From Isurus oxyrinchus (Eukaryota), in assembly GCA_026770705.1 (NCBI GenBank), contig JANJGN010000021.1, forward strand, positions 47,058,001-47,122,000: 64,000 nt of DNA, written 5' to 3'. This document shows positions 4,190 to 64,000 of this stretch, piece after piece (the stretch's first letter is position 1; each line of letters begins with the position of its first letter). Position numbers and translations under genes: made by a program. Under the pieces are notes generated by a model. That model ran no database searches and had not been told where the DNA came from. It saw only the letters and a list, made by a program, of their open reading frames with translations.

Positions 4190-5895
4190 AGATAAGACAG
4201 AAGCATTTGCAATAATCTTCAGCCAGAAATGGTCAGTGGATGATCCGTCTCAGACCCCTTAGATGTCCTCAGCATTATAGGTGTCGGTCTTCAGCCAATT
4301 CAATTCACTCCATATGATAGCAAGGAGCAGATGAGGACACTGGATACTGCAAAGGCTGTGGGCCCTGACAATATTCTGGCATTGGTCCTAAAGACTTGTG
4401 TCCCAGAACTTGCCAAGCTTTCCCAGTACAGCAACAACACTGGCAGTTACCTGGCAATGTGGAAAATTGCCCAGGTATGCCCTGTACACAAAAAGCAGGA
4501 CAAATCCAATCTGGCCAATTATTGCCCCATCAGTCAACTCTCAGTCATCAGTAAAGTAATAGGAGGGGTCATCAACAGTGCTATCAAGTGGCTCTTGCTT
4601 AGCAATAACCTGCTCACTGATACCCAGTTTGGGTTCCACTAGGGCCACTCAACTCCTGACCTCATTACAGCCTTGGTTTCAACGTGGACAAAAGAGCTGA
4701 ATTCCAGAGGTGAGGTGAGAGTGACTGTCCTTGACATCGAAGCAGCATTTGACAGTGTGGCACCAAGGACCCCTAGCAAAACAGGGATCAATGGAAATCA
4801 GAGGGAAAAATCTCCGCTGGTTGGAGTCATACATAGCACAAAGGAAGATGGTTGTGGTTGTTGGAGGTCAGTCATCTCAGCTGCAGGACATCACTGCAGG
4901 TGTTCCTCAGGGTAGTGTCCTCGGCCCAACCATCTTCAGCTGCTTCTTCAATGACCTTCCTTCCATCATAAGGTCTGAAGTGGGGATGATTGCTAATTGC
5001 ACAATGTTCAGCATCATTCACAACTCCTCAGATACTGAATCATTCCATGTCCAAACACAGCAAGGCCTGGACAACATCCAGGCTTGGGTTGACAAGTGGC
5101 CACCCTTGCACCTCACAAGTACCAGGCAATTACCATCCTCAACAAGAGAAAATCTAACCATCTCCCCTTGACATTCAATGGCTTTACCATTGCTGAATCC
5201 CTTGCTATTAACACCTTAGAGATTACTATTGACCAGAAACTGAACAGGCCTAGCCATATATATACCATGGCTTCAAGAGCAGAACAGAGGCTTGGAATCT
5301 TGTGGTGAGTAACTCACCTCCTAACTTCCCAAAACCTATCCAACATCTTCAAAGCACAAGTCAGGAATATGATGAAATACTCTCCACTTGCCTGGATGAG
5401 TGCAGCTCCAACAACACTCAAGAAGCTTGACACCATCCAAGACAAAGCAGCCCACTTGATTGGCACCCAATCCACAAACACTCACTCCATCCCACCACCT
5501 ACACACAGTGGCAGCAGTGTACCATCTACAAGATGCACCGCAGGAACTCACCAAGCCTCATTAGACAGCACATTCCAAACCCAAGAGCACTACCATCTAG
5601 AAGGACAAGAGCAATAAACATATGGGAACATCATGTGGAACTTCCACCACCTGGAAGCTCCCCTCCAGGCCACTCACTTTCTTGACTTGTAAACATATCA
5701 CTGTTCCTTCACTAATGCTGGGTCAAATCCTGGAACTCCCTTCCTAAGAGCACTGTGGGTGTACCTACAACACATGGATTGCAGCGGTTCAAGAAAGCAG
5801 ATCACCCCCACTTTCTCAAGGGCAATTAGGGATGGGTAATAAATGCTGGCCCAGCCAGTGAAGCCGTATCCCATAAATGATTTTTTTTTTAAAAG
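4190..5895 (+). mobile_element. CR1/L2-group LINE (family 2), 5'-truncated decayed RT and 3' UTR
   Basis: ORF fragments read KAVGPDNI, WKIAQVCPVHKK, LDIEAAFDSV and [10 protein letters not shown]. The tail CAAGGGCAATTAGGGATGGG-AATAAATGCTGGCC is shared with 26370-26630 and 47330-47992. Confidence 0.9.
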
Positions 5896-13824: not shown

Positions 13825-14598
13825 TAATATAAAAACAGAAAACACTGGAAAAACTTAGCAGGCCTGGCAGCAGGGAAACAGTTAGCCTTTCAAATCCATA
13901 TGACTCTTCTTCAGAACTGAAGAGAGGTAGAAATGTGTTGGGTTTTATGCTGTTGACGAGGGAGGGGTGGAGAAGGTGGAGCAAAATAGAAGGTCAGGGA
14001 TAGGTTGGAGGTCAGGAGAGATAAAATGACAAAGCTTTAATGGACACAAGGCAAAGGGAGTGGTAATGATAGTGTTAAAGACTAAAGCAGGTGTCAATAG
14101 TGGCATAAAGGTCTGATAGCAGAATGTGTTAATAGCAGAACAAGGGTCAGCACTTTCTGAAAGTAAAACATGAAAATAAGATAAAGACTGGCCCTTGGGT
14201 AGGGAGGGGAAGAGGGTAGAAAAAAACAAAATGGAGGACATAGTTCATGGTATGAAGTTGTTGAACTCAATGTTATGTCCAGAAGGCTGTAAAGTACCTC
14301 ATCAAAAGGTGAGGTGCTGTTCCTGCAGCTTGCATTGGGCTTCACAGGAGCATTATAGCAGGACAAGGACAGAAATGTGAGCTTGAGAGCAAGATGGTGA
14401 ATTGAAATGGCAAATGACAGGAGGGTCGGGATCATGCTTGTGGACTGAGTGAAGGTGTACCGCAAAGCGGTCACCCAGTCTGCATCTGGTCTCCCCAATG
14501 TAGAGCAGACCGCATTGTGAACAGCGAATAGAGTACACCAAATTGTCCCCACAGAATCCTGGTGGGAGGTGAGGGGAAGATGTGTTTGGTGGTGGTAG
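13825..14598 (-). mobile_element. Penelope-like element 3' fragment (GIY-YIG C-terminus and terminal repeat)
   Basis: The ORF at 14353-14541 reads VYSIRCSQCGLLYIGETRCRLGDRF..HL. It is homologous to the arms at 26695-28812. A decayed hammerhead-like motif lies at ~13880-13920 on the minus strand (CTGAAGA..GAGTC-ATATG-GATTT-GAAAG). Confidence 0.85.
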
Positions 14599-15439
14599 AT
14601 TGCCCTATTTAATTTGTACGGTTGTACCTGTGGGACTGGATAATTAGTGTTGCCCACGATGTTCAATTAATTGGTTCTTTTTGACATCTTCCCCACTTTG
14701 TGGAACACATGCGGAAGGTCGTCAAAGAAAAGGGAGAGATTCACAATGCCAAGGAATAATACTGAATCCCATCAGGCCATGCAGAGCCATTATAGCCAGC
14801 TGGGTGTAAATTAACAGACAGAATTACTCTGATTGTTGGAAAGCTGAAGTAAAAAAACCTTGCAAGCTGATAGATGGGTCATGGAAAAAAAAGACAAATT
14901 ATCAGAACTGAATTAAGATCTATTGTTAGGGCATGGCAGATAGAGTTTTACTTTCTACCTGCCTTGGCAACACTTGACTTGATGCGGTCACTAGGTGACA
15001 GTAATAGAAAAATTATCAGTCCTCATACTGAAGATTCTGCACCATGATTGGGACAAAATGAAATGAAGAGTGAAATGGACCATGGATTAATATCTGTTGT
15101 ACACTGAGTTAGCTCATCTTACTCAGAGTTGTAATAGGAATGCTAACATTAACCTCTGCACCCTTGTGTCAAGGAGGGTCAAAGTCAGTCAGTGTTTCCA
15201 TAGCTATCCATTAACTGCTGCTGGAAAGCAACATGCCTGATTTCAGCTGCGGACAGGATTGTATTGGGCTCAATTGTGATACCTTCAAGGTTGTAAATTC
15301 TACTGGTTTATGAATTGTTTGCCCACAAAGTTGCTGGAAGTGCAAGTGATTGCTGCATGGTGAGGGCAACAGGGCATCTGGAACCTTAGGGAACAATGAG
15401 ACAAGCATATATCTCCTTTGCCAATAGGTTCTAAGGATT

Positions 15440-18122: not shown

Positions 18123-18327
18123 AAAAACAGAAATGCTGGCAATACACAGCAGGTTAAGCAATGTCTGTGGAGAGAGGGTTAACATTTCAGATCAATGAAC
18201 TTTCATTTGAACTGAATCTGAAATGTTAACTCTATTTCTCTCTCAACAGATGCTGCCTGACCCACTGAGTATTTCCAGAGTTTTCAGTTTATGTTTCAGA
18301 TTTCCAGCATCTGCAGTGTTTTGTTTT
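18123..18327. mobile_element. Short fold-back Penelope terminus (two inverted PLE 3' ends)
   Basis: Imperfect palindrome centred near 18205 (GTTAACATTTCAGAT...ATCTGAAATGTTAAC). Flanked by CTATCAGACCT and CTACAGACCT, a probable TSD. Confidence 0.75.
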
Positions 18328-21861: not shown

Positions 21862-24800
21862 GAGCCAAGGTTTTCCAGTCTGGGCCTAAGTCCCGTGGCG
21901 GAGTGGGAGTGTTTCCCCTCTGTGGAACTCAGGGGGAAATTGTGCTGAGTCGCGCGATACTGGGCTCATTAATTATGCAGCCGGGGTTCCCCAACGATTT
22001 ATGTGGTGGAGTGAGCGGGATGTCTATCGCCCTACTGTCATATCTGAGCACCATATTTAAAAGGCGCCAAGATAGCTGCTGCTCTTGTTGAATCTGAATC
22101 TAGGATGTGGCCCGGAGACTGCAAGCCGCACTGGCACCCAGGTTTAGTGACGCATTCCTGGAGGTACTGCTGAATGCAATAGAGGAGAAGTGGGGCATCC
22201 TGTACCCCACAAATGGAAGGAGGAGACTCACCAGACTTACCAACCCTGCATGGGAGGCAGTCGCCAGGGTGGTGAGTTCAAACATTTCAGACTGGAGGAC
22301 AGCCCTGCAGTGCAGGAAAAGGATGAATGACCTCAGCCACACCATCAGGGTAAGTGAACCCTCTACTGCTCTAACTTACCTCATAGACTGGTGATAGGTA
22401 TCAGTGGACAGGCTACCATCCGTGCTGCTCGTGCATAAAGGGCTTCTCAACGTGAACTTCTGAGGCCTCATAGTCATACTTCAGTCCATATAGTCTGCAG
22501 GTACAGAGGTCATTACAGATCACTGACCCTGCCACACGGAGAGCTCGTACTGTGGAAGGGGGGGCTGGTGGGTTCTGGAGTAGAAGACACCAGCAAACAC
22601 AGCAGTTGCCATGCCTCCTTGTGCCTGCTCCTTCAATGAACATGAGCTCAGTGTTCTGGAGGGTGCTGTTAGTGGACTAGGTGTGGTGGAGCTTTCACAT
22701 GGCATACAGTAGCCCGAGGATTGCTGCTGTTGACTGGCAACATGTGTATGCTACCTGCATCCCAAGCGCTCTCAAACCATTTTCTCTCCTTGTGCAGGAC
22801 AAATTGGTGCACAACTATTGTGAGAGAGAGAGAGAGAGAGGATGGCAGGGGCACCTGACGCCATACGAAGAGCGGGCTGCCGAGCTGGCAGGGGAGGATC
22901 GGGAGCGGTCATGTGGAGGTCCAGCCTCCATCCAGTAAGGAACAAAGTTTAATGTCTGCACTTAGAAACCTAAGGCTCATGCGTGGTGCCACGTTGGAGG
23001 CAGCTCATGCAGTCGCTCACTGTTTCTCTTGCAATTGCAGGTGCCACCAAGAAGAGGATGAGGCCAGACCCTGAGACCGAGTCTACCACATCCAGTAGCC
23101 CACAGATGAGTGGGGGAGATAAGGGTGAACAAGACATTTCACTTGTAGAGCCATCATAGTAATCACCCGCACCCTCTACCAGCCCAGGTAGAGGTGGGTT
23201 CAAGAGTTAGTTCAAGCAGGGTTTGACATTCTGGTGGTCAGTGCCTGGGCGCGTTTCCGCAGGAGGAGGCAGGTTCAGCCAAGCTCACTGGCACTCAGAG
23301 GACTGCTGGGGAAGAGGCCCCTGCAGAGTCCAAGTCAGATGACGAGCCCCTGGAACCGGTCCTATACAGGGTGCTTGACATGTAGCAGGAGGCGGGGGAA
23401 CATCAGGTAGAGGTGTCGGAGGCCCTCAACAGAGTGACACGTGAGGTAGAGGAGTCTGGCTGCCTGCTCTCTGATGAAGTGGTACCGACCTGTGCGTGCA
23501 TTGATGTCTCCAAGGGGAGGGTGACGGATGCCATGGAGAATCTTGTCCAGCAGAACAACCAGTTTCTTTGGCAGATATGTGCAGAACTGGACTCCATCGC
23601 AGTATCCATCGGTGAGGTTTCACAGTGAGAGGGTGACAGGGCACCTCAGCCTCCATCCAGATGCCCCTTTTCCCCAAGGAGGAATGAAATGTCTTGTTCA
23701 CCCTTATCTCCCTCCCTGATGTGATTTCAATGCGATTCATTGTCCTTGAGCCTGTATGTGTCCCCATCCACCTGCCACCATCTTCAGAGGGACATCCCAG
23801 GCTGGGTCTATGTTCCCCAGAATCAGGCATGTGCAGGGAGGTAAAGTCCTTTGCCAGGGCCCTTGTGAGCCATGTGCAAGAAGTCTCCCACACACGCTGA
23901 GCCTTTGCCCATCACACACTCATCTGTTCCAGGGCCCTGGCATTATAAGTACCACATGCTGAGGTTTCCCTTCAGGTGAGATGACCTGCAGCTCCGACCA
24001 CCCCTGATGAGCCATATCTCAGGCAGCATCTCGAGATCACCACCACGAGGCTCTGGATAGTTGCGAGCTGCCATGGTTCGTGTTATGTTCAATGTGTTGT
24101 CCAATAACTTTAATCCTCCCCCTGTGACCCATACCCTTGCCCCATAACCATTGACCCCCCAGGTATAACATTTGACCTTCTCATAGTTACCCTCTGTCCT
24201 GTGCAGACGAATGTCCATGTCCCCTACCTTCCTGAGGAGCTCACCCCCATGCCAGTAGGTCAACCTCCCCTCATTCTGCCGACCCCCAGAATCCACTTTT
24301 ACATCCATATCCCCTCCAACAACTCTCAGTCCCCCTTCATCCAACATCACCGAAACCTCACCCTCCCACCCTACTGGCTCCATCTTTAACCCTCATCATC
24401 CCTTTCTATCAACAATTCCCTCAGTATGCCCCTCAAGACTCATCCATTGACAACACAGACCCCCCCCTCTGAACCCCTTTCTCCCCCACCTTTCCCTCCA
24501 CTCTACTGTCCGTACTCACCTGCACACCACCCCCCAACCCCCCACAATGTCCTACACACTCGCCCCACCTCTTCATTACTCGCCTCCTTGTCTAATGCCC
24601 TCACAAACACAGATCATCGGTGCCCAATGGCACCTCATTCAACTGTGCATCTGAAGCCCTAGGATCCACCTCCTGGAAGCACAAACAGCTCGAGAATCCA
24701 CGTGATAGATGCTCCACCTACCCACAGCTGCACGTAACCTGCAAAGCTCCATGGTCACTGGAGGCCTCCATCTCTTCCACTGTCCGCAAGCTGCTCCAGG

Positions 24801-26260: not shown

Positions 26261-26369
26261 CCTCTAACTTCACATGGTGAGGAACAGTGCCTCAGGAGGT
26301 TTTGTTTCATAGAGGAGACAGTGATGGAGTTGTGTCACCACCTCCACGATGACCTGGAGCCTCATACTA

Positions 26370-26630
26370 CCACCTGGGAACACCACCAACTGCAAGATCC
26401 CCGCCAAGCTACTCACCATCCTGACTTGGAAATAAGTTACCTTCCTTCAGTGTCACTGGGTCGAAATCCTGGAACTCCCTCCCTAAGAGCACTGTGGGTC
26501 TACCTACACCACATGGACTGCAGCGGTTCAAGAAGGCAGCTCACCGCCACCTTCTCAAGGGCAATTAGGGATGGGCAATAAATACTGGCCCAGCCAGTGA
26601 AGCTCACATCCCATGAAAACTTAAAAAAAC
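26370..26630 (+). mobile_element. CR1/L2-group family 2 3' tail
   Basis: Matches 5625-5890. Confidence 0.85.
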
Positions 26631-26736
26631 GTTGGGATAGAGGAGAGGGTCAGGTGTGGAGGGTTAGGCCTCTGAGCAACTATCCTGTTTTCTGGAAAAA
26701 CTCAGCAGGTCTGGCAGCATCGGTGGAGAAGAAAAG

Positions 26737-26775
26737 AGTTGATGTTTCGAGTCCTCATGACCCTTCGACAGAACT
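26737..26775 (-). ncRNA. Minimal type-I hammerhead ribozyme-like motif in the left PLE arm
   Basis: The minus strand reads AGUU-CUGUCGA-A-GGGUC-AUGAG-GACUC-GAAAC-AUC-AACU. Confidence 0.55.
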
Positions 26776-28678
26776 TGAGTTTGAGTCCAAGAAAGAGTTG
26801 AAATATAAGCTGGTTTAAGGTGTGTGTGTGGGGGGGGGGGCGGAGAGAGAGAAGTGGAGTGGGGGTGTGGTTGTAGGGACAAACAAGCAGTGATAGAAGC
26901 AGATCATCAAAAGATGTCAACAACAATAGAACAAAAGAACACATAGGTGTTAAAGTTGGTGATATTATCCAAACGAATGTGTTAATTAAGAATGGATGGT
27001 AGGGGACTCAAGGTATAGCTCTAGTGGGGGTGGGGAGAGCATAAAATATTTTAAAATATTTAAAAATAATGGAAATAGGTGGGAAAAGAAAAATCTATAT
27101 AATTTATTGGAATAAAAAGGAAGGGGGAAACAGAAAGGGGGTGGAGATGGGGGAGGGAGCTCACGACCTAAAGTTGTTGAATTCAATATTCAGTCCGGAA
27201 GGCTGTAAAGTGCCTAGTCGGAAGATGAGGTGTTGTTCCTCCAGTTTGCGTTGGGCTTCACTGGAGCAATGCAGCAAGCCAAGGACAGACATGTGGGCAA
27301 GAGAGCAGGGTGGAGTGTTAAAGTGGCAAGCGACAGGGAGGTTTGGGTCATTCTTGTGAACAGACCGCAGCTGTTCCGCAAAGCGGTCGCCCAGTTTACG
27401 TTTGGTCTCTCCAATGTAGTGGAGACCACATTGGGAGCAACGAATGCAGTAGACTAAGTTGGGGGAAATGCAAGTGAAATACTGCTTCACTTGAAAGGAG
27501 TGTTTGGGCCCTTGGACGGTGAGGAGAGAGGAGGTGAAGGGGCAGGTGTTGCATCTTTTGCGTGGGCATGAGGTGGTGCCATAGGAGGGGGTTGAGGAGT
27601 AGGGGGTGATGGAGGAGTGGACCAGGGTGTCCCGGAGGGAGCGATCCCTACGGAATGCCGATAGGGGGGGGGTGAAGGGAAGATGTGTTTGGTGGTGGCA
27701 TCATACTGGAGTTGGCGGAAATGGCGGAGGATGATCCTTTGGATGCGGAGGCTGGTGGGGTGATAATCACCACCAAACACATCTTCCCTTCACCCCCCCC
27801 TTTCGGCAATCCGTAGGGATCGCTCCCTCCGGGACACCCTGGTCTACACCTCCATCACCCCCTACTCCTCAACCCCCTCCTATGGCACCACCCCATGCCC
27901 ACGCAAAAGATGCAACACCTGCCCCTTCACTTCCTCTCTCCTCACCGTCCAAGGGCCCAAACACTCCTTTCAAGTGAAGCAGTATTTCACTTGCATTTCC
28001 CCCAACTTAGTCTACTGCATTCGTTGCTCCCAATAAGATCTCCTCTACATTGCAGAGACCAAACGTAAACTGAGCGACCGCTTTGCAGAACACCTGCGGT
28101 CTGTCCGCAAGAATGACCCAAACCTCCCTGTCGCTTGCCATTTTAACACTCCACCCTGCTCTCTTGCCCACATGTCTGTCCTTGGCTTGCTGCATTGCTC
28201 CAGTGAAGCCCAGCGCAAACTGGAGGAACAACACCTCATCTTCCGACTAGGCACTTTACAGCCTTCCGGACTGAATATTGAATTCAACAACTTTAGGTCA
28301 TGAGCTCCCTCCTTCATCCCCACCCCCTTTCTGTTTCCCCCTTCCTTTTTTTTCCCTATAAATTATATAGATTTTTCTTTTCCCACCTATTTCCATTATT
28401 TTTAAATATTTTAAAATATTTTATGCTCTCCCCACCCCCACTAGAGCTATACCTTGAGTCCCCTACCATCCATTCGTAATTAGCACTATCGTTTAGATAA
28501 TATCACCAACTTTAACACCTATGTGTTCTATTGTTGTTGACATCTTTTGATGATCTGCTTCTATCACTGCTTGTTTGTCCCTACAACCACACCCCCCCTC
28601 CACTTCTCTCTCTCTCCGCCCCCCACACACACACCTTAAACCAGCTTATATTTCAACTCTTTCTTGGACTTGAACTCA

Positions 28679-28717
28679 AGTTCTGTCGAAGGGTCATGAG
28701 GACTTGAAACGTCAACT
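28679..28717 (+). ncRNA. Minimal type-I hammerhead ribozyme-like motif in the right PLE arm
   Basis: Reads AGUU-CUGUCGA-A-GGGUC-AUGAG-GACUU-GAAAC-GUC-AACU. Stem I is AGUU/AACU, stem II is present, a palindromic ACGU replaces stem III, and the cleavage triplet is GUC. Confidence 0.6.
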
Positions 28718-28826
28718 CTTTTCTTCTCCGCCGATGCTGCCAGACCTGCTGAGTTTTTCCAGGTAATTCTGTTTTTGTTTTGGATTTCCAGCAAGCGCAG
28801 TTTTTTTGTTTTTATCCTGTTTTCTG

Positions 28827-29400
28827 TCCTGGAGGTCTGAAGATGTGTGGGAATTGCTGATTGCCGCAGGATAGAATCGTTGTGGGTGCTCCTATGATAG
28901 TGGGTGCTCCTAGGATAGAAGGCATTCACTGGGATAAACTTCTTTGTGTGGTTGCACACCGAGTGCACATTGACTGAATAGTAACCATTGTGGTTGCAGT
29001 GCTGCTGTAGGAGCTCGCAGAACCACATGTGTGTGCTCGATGTCACCCTGCATCATTGAGAGGTCCTCTATCCTAGCAAACCTTAAGTGCCCTTTCATTC
29101 TGGTCTTCCCTCCTCAGAGAGAAAAGGGTGAAGTACCATCTCCTCCTTTTGAGAGCGTCGATCCTGGATATTTCTATGGGTGACGGATTGTGGCACGTTG
29201 TTGATGTCACCAGCTCCTGCTCGGAAGGATGCAGTTTCTTGGAAGGAAGTGCAACAGTGATCTTCACAGGCACTAGGAGGGCCATCATTGCTCCGGTTTG
29301 AGACGCCAGGTCATCGTGAAGGTGGTGACACAACTCCATTACTGCCACCTTTGTGAAACGAAATCTCCATCATGTCTCATCACAACATGGAAGTGATGCT
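28827..29400 (-). pseudogene. HARBI1-like Harbinger transposase, N-terminal and catalytic remnant
   Basis: Minus-strand fragments read VMELCHHL...VPVKITVAL, RFARIEDLSMMQGDIEHTHV and GYYSVNVHSVCNH..VNAFYPRSTH..DSILRQS. It continues past the PLE as G*LL (compare GWLLGD). Confidence 0.8.
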
Positions 29401-47329: not shown

Positions 47330-47992
47330 ATATCCAGGGGTTACCATTGATCAGAAACTGAACTGGGCTAGTCATATAAATACTGCGGCTACAAGACCAG
47401 AGACTAGGAATCCTGTGGCCAGTAACTCACCTCCTGACTTCCCAATGCTTGTCCACCATCTACAAGGCACAAGTCAGGAGTGTGATGGAATACTCTCCAC
47501 TTGCCTGGATGAGTGCAGCTTCCACAACACTCAAGAAGCTTGGCATCATCCAGGACAAAGCAGCCCACTTGATTGGCACTCTATCCACAAACATTAACTC
47601 CCTCCTTCAATGATGCACAGTAGCAGCAGTGTGTACCTTCCTCAAGATGCACTGCAGGAACTCACCAAGGCTCCTTAGACAGCACCTTCCAAACCCACAG
47701 CCACCACCGTCTAGAAGGAGAAGGGCAGCAGTTAGATGGGAGCACAACCACTTGGAAATTCCCCTCCAAGCCACTCACCATCCTGACTTGGAAATATATC
47801 GCCGTTCCTTCACTGTCACTGGATCAAAATCTTAGAATTCCCTCCCTAACGGCACTATGAGTGTACTGACACCACAGAGACTGCAGCAGTTCAAGAAAGC
47901 AGCTCACCACCACCTTCTCAAGGGAAGTTAGGGATGGCCAATAAATGCTGGCCTCGCTAGTGATGCCCACATCCTGTGAACGAATAAAAAAG
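47330..47992 (+). mobile_element. CR1/L2-group family 2 3' fragment
   Basis: Encodes GVTIDQKLNW and is colinear with 5215-5890. Confidence 0.9.
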
Positions 47993-58146: not shown

Positions 58147-59550
58147 GGGGGAGAAATTAGGCTGTGTTTTTTAGGTGTTGGGTTGCAAAAATGGGGTCCA
58201 GAGTGCAACACTGATTAGATGCCACTGCTATAATTTTCAAACTTCACAGTCCAGCCCTAGCTTAATCTTAAATGCAAAATACTGCAGATGCTGGGCATCC
58301 GAAATAAAAACAGAAAGTGCTGGAAAAGCTCTGCAGCTGTAGCAGCTTCTCTGGAGAGAGAAAAAGAGTTAATATTTCGAGTCCAATATGACTTCTTCTG
58401 TTCCGAAAGTCAGATGGACTCGAAATGTTAACTCTGTTCCTCTCTCCACAGATGCCGCCAGACCTTCTGAGTTTTCCCAGAATTTTCTGTTTTTATTTTG
58501 CTCTCAATCTTGCACAGATGAACACAGGTTAATCAAAATGGTGGGTTCCCCACCAGTTCCATTTAAAGGAATCATGAACTACTTACAGGTTAGTTGTTGG
58601 ATTATTTCTTCTGTTTGCTGCTGCAATAGTCCGTGGGTTTGGAGCTTTCCAATACTTGGCTAATGTTTGAATAATCTACAGTGAGTAATTTGGCTGGTCT
58701 TAACATTGTTTTTTGTTCATTTAAAAGCTCATGCTGAAATAAGTTGCACCACCTACTCCTGTTAAGAAAGTGGGAAGCATGCTAATGAGTGTCCTGCTGT
58801 TTGTTTGGGTGAAGTGGCTTTCATGATTGAATTCCTGCCATTGTGTATGAGCTGTGAGTTGTGGATGCCAGAGTTGTAAGTGTGCTAAATGTGTGAGAGT
58901 AGAGCATATGAATTGAAGGGTTGAGTACAGTTTGATAGAAATTGTTTGTGGTGTATCGAATAGGAGCAGTGGATGAAGCTAGTGTGCAGTTAGGAGGATG
59001 TCCCATTTGAAGATGAACTCATTCACCTTAATGACTTGAGTCAGATCATTAAACTTCTTCCTGCACTGCACCCCTGTTCTTACACAACACTCCTGGCATT
59101 GACCTCTGCTGCTACTTCCTCTCACTACCCCTTGAGCATATGTCTGGAAGGCCTTCTGCTGATACAGCATGTATTTACTTCCTCTCATGTCTTGCATCAA
59201 GGCCTTCAGTGCAGTGTCTGAAGATCACAGTGTCTGCACTTTTCTATATTCAGCCGTTCCTTAAAGTATTAGAGCCCAGGTTCATTGTTCAAAGAATTCC
59301 CACCACTTCTTGCAACCGCAGTGCATCTTCCCTAGAAGAGGTGCAGACTGCCTTTGTCTAATATTAGCCATTCATGCTATCGGTCCCACTGCTAATGTGT
59401 GCCGGCAATGAAGGCAGTGTGCAATATGTAGAAATGATTTTAAGATAATGGGCAGCACCAACTTAATGTGCTACCTACAATGATGGATACAGGTAACTTG
59501 CATAGAGTGATTCCCACGTTCATTTTCAGTGTTAGCCAATTTAACCCCCA
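58147..59550 (-). mobile_element. Decayed Harbinger-type element with Myb/SANT remnant, containing a PLE fold-back
   Basis: Termini are GGGGGAGAAATT and AATTTAACCCC. The minus ORF reads RTGVQCRKKFNDLTQVIK, followed by GTGAAT. Confidence 0.65.
58274..58499. mobile_element. Short fold-back Penelope terminus
   Basis: Palindrome centred near 58400 (GAGTTAATATTTCGAGTCCA...TGGACTCGAAATGTTAACTC). The full tail is present on the left arm only. Confidence 0.75.
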
Positions 59551-62631: not shown

Positions 62632-62870
62632 GGGACAGAATTTTTAGATTGGAGGGCAGGCACAATCGGCGGGTCCGGGATCAGCCGGGAATGGATCGCT
62701 GACCGCAATCGGACCCCCCACCATGATTTCATGCTGACTGGCCAAGTAACAGCCAGCCAGCTTGAAGCGCATGCCGAGAAGCTCAGCGCTGCCAGGGTGG
62801 GGGTGGGGGAGGGTGGGCACTGATGTCAGTGCGGGCATAGCCAAGCGCTGATGGAAAGCTCACTGAAGAG
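62632..62870 (+). mobile_element. Harbinger-type MITE left arm, truncating the CR1
   Basis: Starts GGGACAGAATTTTT and is CpG-rich. Confidence 0.65.
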
Positions 62871-64000
62871 AACTGTCTCAGGGCACTGAAGACCTGCCTC
62901 AGGGAACTGCCTCCAGGAGCTGAAGACCTGCCTCAGGGAACTGCCTCAAGGAGCTGAAGACCTGCCTCAGGGAACTGCTGCAGGGCATTGAAGACCTGCC
63001 TCAGGGAACTGCTGCAGGGCATTAAAGACCTGCCTCAGTGAACTGCCTCAGGGAGCTGAAGACCTGCCTCAGGGAACTGCTGCAGGGCATTGAAGACCTG
63101 CCTCAGGGAACTGCTGCAGGGCATTGAAGACCTGCCTCAGGGAACTGCTGCAGGGCATTGAAGACCTGCCTCAGGGAACTGCCTCAAGGAGCTGAAGACC
63201 TGCCTCAGGGAACTGCTGCAGGGCATTGAAGACCTGCCTCAGGGAACTGCCTCAAGGAGCTGAAGACCTGCCTCAGGGAACTGCTGCAGGGCATTGAAGA
63301 CCTGCCTCAGGGAACTGCTGCAGGGCATTAAAGACCTGCCTCAGGGAACTGCCTCAAGGAGCTGAAGACCTGCCTCAGGGAACTGCCTCAAAGGGCTGAA
63401 GACCTGCCTCAGGGAACTGCCTCAAGGAGCTGAAGACCTGCCTCAGGGAACTGCCTCAAAGGGCTGAAGACCTGCCTCAGGGAACTGCCTCAAGGAGCTG
63501 AAGACCTGCCTCAGGGAACTGCCTCAAAGGGCTGAAGACCTGCCTCAGGGAACTGCCTCAAGGAGCTGAAGACCTGCCTCAGGGAACTGCCTCAAGGAGC
63601 TGAAGACCTGGCTCAGGGAACTGCCTCAAGGAGCTGAAGACCTGTCTCAGGGAACTGCCTCAAGGAGCTGAAGACCTGTCTCAGGGAACTGCCTCAAGGA
63701 GCTGAAGACCTGCCTCAGGGAACTGCCTCAAGGAGCTGAAGACCTGCCTCAGGGAACTGCCTCAAGGAGCTGAAGACCTGTCTCAGGGAACTGCCTCAAG
63801 GAGCTGAAGACCTGTCTCAGGGAACTGCCTCAAGGAGCTGAAGACCTGCCTCAGGGAACTGCCTCAAGGAGCTGAAGACCTGCCTCAGGGAACTGCCTCA
63901 AGGAGCTGAAGACCTGCCTCAGGGAACTGCCTCAAGGAGCTGAAGACCTGCCTCAGGGAACTGCCTCAAGGAGCTGAAGACCTGCCTCAGGGAACTGCCT
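62871..64000. repeat. 34-bp minisatellite, about 33 units, continuing past the window end
   Basis: The consensus unit is GAAGACCTGCCTCAGGGAACTGCCTCAAGGAGCT, with a few recurring variants. Confidence 0.98.

Follow-up and report, generated by a model that had tools for sequence, protein, structure and literature searches.

A head-to-head palindrome in Isurus oxyrinchus as a probable ordinary insertion of an abundant Penelope-like element

Among endonuclease-positive Penelope-like elements (PLEs), an insertion layout that combines an inverted truncated copy, a one-sided tail and a target-site duplication (TSD) is already known. Inverted 5'-truncated copies at the 5' end and one-sided tails of 30–40 bp in PLE insertions are described in the part of PMC8557442 (Craig et al. 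2021) used here, which also states the origin of such inverted units to be unresolved, and the part of PMC3846280 (Arkhipova et al. 2013) used here gives TSDs around the whole complex insertion for Pen2/Pen2a of Adineta vaga. According to the sections of PMC11167929 (Frangieh et al. 2024) that we could use, a PLE protein in purified form cleaves the two strands of its target, extends them, and initiates copying at a pair of adjacent sites within the RNA which delimit the tail; the protein is predicted to be a dimer, and ribozyme cleavage was dispensable in vitro.

We have analysed a stretch of 64,000 nt of Isurus oxyrinchus DNA (GenBank assembly GCA_026770705.1, 4.98 Gb; contig JANJGN010000021.1, positions 47,058,001 to 47,122,000), which is called the window below and in which a first-pass annotation had described a Penelope palindrome of 2.1 kb formed in one insertion event. 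The palindrome is a real but ordinary insertion that changes nothing by itself, and we are highly confident that it represents one dead, ordinary insertion of an abundant Neptune/Nematis-type PLE. The two similar inverted arms of about 1 kb described in that annotation are indeed present: when aligned with each other, the left arm (26692-27697) and the right arm (27768-28762) give 957 matches, 37 mismatches (24 transitions and 13 transversions over 994 columns) and 13 gap columns. Both arms read outward, and the unit is therefore head-to-head with the element 3' ends at the flanks. The perfect 14-bp direct repeat reported around the unit was also found, since TATCCTGTTTTCTG occurs in the 64-kb window exactly twice, at 26681-26694 and 28813-28826 on the forward strand. 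The exact length of this duplication is ambiguous, because the last 3 nt of its left copy also match the end of the left arm and the first 4 nt of its right copy also match the continuation of the element.

The left arm is a 5'-truncated element copy on the reverse strand (26692..27766), which has no tail and stops 50 nt before the tail end, and the right arm is a 5'-truncated copy of the same element on the forward strand (27768..28812), which carries an 8-bp deletion near 28530 and ends in the 50-nt one-sided 3' extension (28763..28812, forward strand) that we call the tail. The earlier description, in which each arm had the same parts, thus holds for the GIY-YIG end, to which both arms translate, and fails for the tail, which is found on the right arm only. 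Measured to the same ruler, the right arm is 1,058 nt and the left arm 1,127 nt long, and the left arm extends 69 nt further at its 5' end. The spacer of 70 bp does separate the aligned arms (27698-27767), but it is not foreign DNA: on the reverse strand it consists of 69 nt of additional left-arm element sequence and one junction base. Positions 27698-27766 keep the reading frame of the left arm going and match the ruler copy L031, and in run X24, 2,944 raw reads connect 27698 to 27768 on opposite strands, the arrangement of an intact element. The centre joint has one extra base, at 27767, and no microhomology.

Judged from its sequence, the element is an endonuclease-positive PLE in which a reverse transcriptase (RT) is followed by a C-terminal GIY-YIG domain. 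The window arms are truncated and have no RT, and this order was read from L031, a near-complete relative that is 97% and 95% identical to the arms: in three frame pieces it carries a DKG motif, RVT_1 (E=0.0097) and GIY-YIG (PF01541, E=1.9e-4) in that order, with both scores below the Pfam cut-offs, and its 3' end is repeated at its own 5' end. In the left arm, a linker and GIY-YIG endonuclease remnant is open (27164..27700, reverse strand) and shows CX4CxxC and a CxxC between GIY and YIG; the frame is 179 aa long with the endonuclease at its end, and at a G run near 27663 it loses register with the piece upstream of it. The corresponding remnant of the right arm (27768..28303, forward strand) is interrupted by a stop at 28034-28036, in place of the second Cys of the CxxC. 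PF01541 matched the left arm at E=0.053 only and gave no match with the split right arm.

The stretch VYCIRCSQCGL(L/H)YIG, with two Cys between GIY and YIG and His residues after it, is found in the left arm and L031, and the linker CPRKRCNTC in the left arm, the right arm and L031. As far as the consulted part of PMC8557442 goes, a zinc-finger-like CX2-5CxxC linker is characteristic of Neptune and Nematis, and Penelope/Poseidon elements lack it. By this linker motif the element is of the Neptune/Nematis type, and the Penelope/Poseidon clade was ruled out since the linker zinc finger is present; the name given in the first-pass annotation is hence right in the sense of a Penelope-like element and wrong in the sense of Penelope sensu stricto. 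Neptune is reported as widespread in vertebrates in the portion of bioRxiv 10.64898/2026.07.22.740005 seen by us, and this vertebrate distribution favours Neptune over Nematis.

The family is very abundant. A 46-mer of the element 3' end has 76,017 exact matches in the assembly, versus 0 for the reversed control. Among the first 100 matches listed, which cover a 5.4-Mb part of a single contig, there were 28 pairs of neighbours less than 5 kb apart, and 18 of these were head-to-head, 3 tail-to-tail and 7 same-strand, an excess of the head-to-head orientation over the expected 0.25 (p=1.3e-5). Scaled up, this would roughly correspond to more than 10,000 head-to-head units in the genome, as extrapolated from one region. 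We also surveyed the layout in 79 stretches of ten kb (78 fetched ones and that of the window), which were selected for long arms or for markers of the lineage of the window arms and are not a random sample, and found 38 head-to-head units with a flanking repeat of at least 9 bp. After two units at L066 were dropped, in which the flanking repeat was element sequence, all 36 remaining palindromes, including the window unit, have repeats of 10–17 bp and exactly one tailed arm each.

Several palindromes of the family combine arms of 0.7–1.8 kb with spacers shorter than 40 nt, and because such comparable units exist in the genome, that of the window is not unusually stable. The view that a long palindrome of this kind should be rare or unstable was therefore not borne out: the layout is routine for this family and is published for the class. 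At L057:6120-8800, L139:1637-4347, L068:6251-8800 and L047:7629-8800, a third short element piece lies at the centre joint; several of these pieces directly continue one arm at its 5' end but lie in the opposite orientation, and look like a small twin-priming or fold-back patch.

We examined the lineage of the arms with markers that divide the family. The window arms differ at 0 of 19 lineage markers, while such concordance was found in 3.5% of 4,717 unlinked copy pairs, drawn from a pool enriched for the lineage of these arms, and both arms carry a marker with only 62 exact-pattern matches genome-wide. An origin of the arms from different subfamilies, which had been put forward as a possible refutation, was rejected at this locus because the arms belong to the same subgroup and no marker is discordant. 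A variant common to both arms is found in 6 of 246 matches, two of which are the arms themselves; this is weak evidence of lineage, about 1,000 columns having been inspected. The 8-bp deletion of the right arm was seen in 2 of the 62 matches of the small lineage and is likely to be recurrent. In the tree both arms fall in the same subgroup but are not sisters, each being nearer to some unlinked copy (2.7–2.8%) than to its partner, and no private change common to both was clear by the 5% criterion.

The difference between the arms is 3.63%, where palindromes have a median of 2.72% and a maximum of 3.72% (n=25, overlap of at least 400) and unlinked pairs a median of 3.73% (n=149), about level with the window arms. 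The window arms have private-change rates of 1.5% and 1.9%, which correspond to the 78th and 92nd percentiles and put them at the top of nine haplotype mates (0.4–1.5%). Their divergence (37/994) does not differ significantly from that of the flank to organism B (16/588; p=0.31). Most of the arm difference of 3.7% probably arose after insertion, but the mechanism does not guarantee this.

Among 26 palindromes with at least 12 shared markers, 13 differ at 0–1, four at 2 and nine at 3–9 sites, where at most 0.45 would be expected from recurrent mutation; 0–1 discordant markers were found in 12% of unlinked pairs. Units whose arms differ at 5–9 of 17–21 lineage markers are L138:1952-3939, L141:1619-6911, L146:1735-5590, L045:5476-8800 and L062:3937-8800, and the discordant sites span 630–700 nt in L141 and L146 and about 320 nt in L138. 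Haplotypes look mosaic throughout the copies compared. Discordant-arm palindromes apparently reflect different templates or later gene conversion. The proposal that arm divergence dates the insertion is consequently approximate at best, given nine of 26 palindromes discordant at 3–9 markers and window arms as far apart as unlinked copies, and the family counts warn against dating PLE arms in the style of LTRs.

Whether the unit exists in the genome as assembled and arose at one time can be judged from its boundaries and flanks. An assembly artefact, namely a fold-back chimera, is extremely improbable: contigs do break at the repeat, but the arms differ at 37 sites and by indels, a difference of 3.7% which argues against a folded-back read, the TSD and one-sided tail obey the rule of the family, and in run X1 a contig connects 17 nt of the tail with the right flank, a length below our 31-nt bridging rule. 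In run X7 (organism B) there is a contig of 1,716 nt that agrees with the window precisely from 28813 on, and the 91 letters before that point do not agree with the tail, so that this junction suits an empty allele. The left flank, swamped by repeats, had zero depth at 26650-26675 in all four runs mapped, and a search of the assembly gave no further near-identical copy of the right flank. In the flank 28813-29400, the X1 contig differs at 6 of 605 and the X7 contig at 16 of 588 positions, and several of the differences are common to both. Two successive insertions, in which a second copy entered in the opposite orientation at the 5' end of the one already present, would agree with arms as divergent as unlinked copies and not sisters in the tree, and with the density of the family in the genome; even so they are very unlikely, in view of the single 14-bp repeat that bounds the unit without a second duplication at the centre, the exactly one tail in 36 of 36 such units, the same small-lineage haplotype on both arms and the strong head-to-head bias among neighbour pairs. 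The claim of a single integration was thus sustained by the one duplication around the unit and the concordance at all 19 markers, and one source lineage together with one integration is, as read from these sequence features, well supported.

For the way in which one integration gives two arms, we regard two-strand priming at a staggered cut as the probable mechanism, on account of the longer untailed arm here, the clustering of untailed ends and the two-strand extension reported in the part of PMC11167929 available. The endonuclease would cut the two strands of the target at positions some 14 nt from each other; priming from the bottom strand at the outer RNA start site would give the tailed right arm, and priming from the top strand at the inner start site the untailed left arm; both cDNAs would stop early and be end-joined with one extra base, and fill-in would create the target duplication. 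The templates of both arms at the window locus are likely to have come from one source lineage. In 22 of 26 simple two-piece units the untailed end lies 22–37 nt inside the tail end, a cluster expected for a second start site, and the window unit, at 50 nt, is an outlier. The tailed arm is the longer in 13 of these 26 units and the untailed arm in 12, with one tie. Microhomology at insertion ends averages 1.14 nt (65 ends) versus 0.4–0.5 nt in shuffled controls, the control being too lenient since the repeat is defined as the longest exact match. Arm lengths are coupled, as eight of 21 long units are within 110 nt versus 2.2 by permutation, which requires that both arms be synthesised at the same time, that a single broken RNA serve as template twice, or that a subset of units arise by fold-back. 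Fold-back or self-priming, which is proposed in the consulted part of PMC3846280 and in which one cDNA or antisense RNA folds back and is copied, would give arms identical at birth with the spacer as loop; it explains the excess of near-equal arm lengths, including those of the window unit (69 nt), more simply than two-strand priming does, and it suits the 0–1 discordant markers in 13 of 26 palindromes against 12% of unlinked pairs. It is nonetheless rather unlikely for the window unit, in which the untailed arm is the one that extends further 5' (12 of 26 units share this) and the centre joint has no microhomology: unless the template is switched once more, a longer untailed arm cannot come from copying back along the tailed cDNA, nor a tail from copying the untailed one. 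The 3–9 discordant markers in nine of 26 units also stand against it, among them those of L138, where 9 of 19 markers are discordant and the arm lengths are only 31 nt apart.

An extension of two-strand priming, which we put forward tentatively and consider somewhat less probable than its absence, is that an RT dimer copies two separate RNAs at once, one per cut strand and start site, and stops both together. Such a dimer would account for the single tail of each unit, for the fact that either arm can be the longer, for near-equal lengths, and for discordant arms within one TSD; if scaled by the rate in unlinked pairs, the nine discordant units of 26 would correspond to roughly 45% independent templates. 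If this is true, PLE arms are not datable like LTRs. The family counts (one tail, either arm longer, coupled lengths, mixed lineages) discriminate between fold-back and two-strand priming, and the only lead from the window locus is the possibility that a single insertion copies two RNAs. We found no test of one versus two templates in the literature searched, which was mostly without subscription papers and supplements, and we do not claim its absence from print.

The ribozyme-like motif noted earlier in each arm is a minimal-hammerhead-like motif, at 26741..26771 on the reverse strand in the left arm and at 28683..28713 on the forward strand in the right arm, whereas the accompanying suggestion of a candidate self-cleavage site is unlikely to hold. 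Both copies have the core CUGUCGA with U at position 6, which departs from the consensus C3U4G5A6N7G8A9 given in the part of PMC7151607 that we used; moreover, the helix-III palindrome is broken in the left copy (ACAU for ACGU) and G10.1-C11.1 has become G-U in the right one. An A6C change sharply cut Mg2+-dependent cleavage in another hammerhead according to the same passages, outside which A6U lies. Single minimal hammerhead motifs were uncleaved in vitro and a dimer was required, as stated in the available part of PMC4209133 (Cervera and De la Pena 2014), where opposite-strand motif pairs 100–700 bp apart are already noted in metazoan PLEs. In the read-through RNA the sense motif would pair with the antisense arm, as suggested by the arm alignment and the fold. 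Self-cleavage of the window motifs thus appears unlikely because of U6, the further lesion in each arm, the published requirement for a dimer and sequestration in the hairpin, and the motifs are likely to be inactive.

U at core position 6 is a property of the family, being present in at least 139 of 145 copies at the fetched loci. The commonest form (74 of 145) has G12A13A14, a helix II with G10.1-C11.1, an extra base after A9 and a palindromic 15.2-16.2. The metazoan PLE hammerheads in that part of PMC4209133 likewise have no real helix III, a palindromic 15.2-16.2, an extra base after A9 and G10.1-C11.1, and differ from the window family in its core CUGUCGA and from the window copies in one further lesion each. 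An Rfam search gave no hammerhead family at E<=5; all of its 11 matches were under the gathering score, and most were models of miRNAs that fit the hairpin. The canonical core CUGAAGA is seen in an older copy of the window (13914, reverse strand). A U6 core in a family of at least 76,000 copies agrees with the report that insertion does not depend on cleavage.

A read-through transcript had been expected to form a long duplex, and this stands as a prediction: the 661-nt centre gives a predicted fold of −636 kcal/mol. RNA runs contain 0.05–0.29 of the words of the unit, attributable to other family copies. The idea that the host keeps or uses the palindrome as a source of dsRNA, as an endo-siRNA or ADAR substrate with a self-cleavage site, draws on this long duplex but is highly improbable, as arm differences accumulate evenly and comprise CpG decay in each of the ribozyme motifs, like units number in the thousands in the genome, and U6 is general among the motif copies. 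Furthermore, no host-gene domain was found in 62 stop-free frames of at least 95 aa in the rest of the window, a search from which short exons would escape. The palindrome is likely to be without function.

The window also contains other repeats. Older PLE pieces, about 75–83% identical, lie at 13826-14666 (reverse strand), 18208-18327 and 58275-58510, the last of which comprises at 58302-58498 a short inverted pair with 84-nt arms. About 50 nt to the left of the insertion is a LINE 3' end (26385-26628), which we take to be CR1-like, with copies at 5646-5889 and 47747-47991 and an RT domain at 4725-5168. A 73-nt inverted match (85%) between 26295-26367 and 29296-29368 flanks the unit, and the right flank is part of an old dispersed repeat that has 66–80% matches elsewhere. 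A frame at 22104-22391 (forward strand) has a Myb/SANT-like domain (PF13873, E=1.3e-4, above the cut-off) and is possibly a transposon-derived remnant. At 62870-64000 a 34-bp tandem array of at least 33 copies with 93% matches continues past the window end.

In twin priming of L1, a single RNA supplies the inverted and the direct part from stretches that do not overlap. The resulting 5' inversions resemble the window unit in that one TSD surrounds an insertion with an inverted part and both target strands prime, and differ from it in covering different RNA stretches, whereas both window arms copy the same 3' kilobase. Because the arms overlap over about 1 kb of the element, twin priming of the L1 type was ruled out for the window unit.

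Closer parallels are found among PLEs. PAc, the Poseidon element of Anolis, has two adjacent internal start points giving the tail, primes from both target strands and carries its ribozyme just upstream of the tail, as far as described in the part of PMC11167929 at hand; being of the Poseidon clade, it makes the in vitro work one on another clade than that of the window element, and within that part head-to-head palindromes are not derived and one versus two templates are not compared. With Neptune/Nematis PLEs the window element shares the C-terminal GIY-YIG, the CX2-5CxxC linker (CPRKRCNTC), the GIY-YIG with two Cys and, in L031, the DKG motif, and it differs from them in the U6 of the hammerhead core in its family. 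Published complex PLE insertions have the same head-to-head arrangement with an inverted truncated copy at the 5' end, a one-sided tail, a short TSD and a hammerhead-like motif within the terminal repeat; their tails are 30–40 bp, versus 50 nt in the window unit. Both arms of the window unit are about 1 kb long and include the endonuclease end in addition to the pLTR, and we regard neither difference as one of kind.
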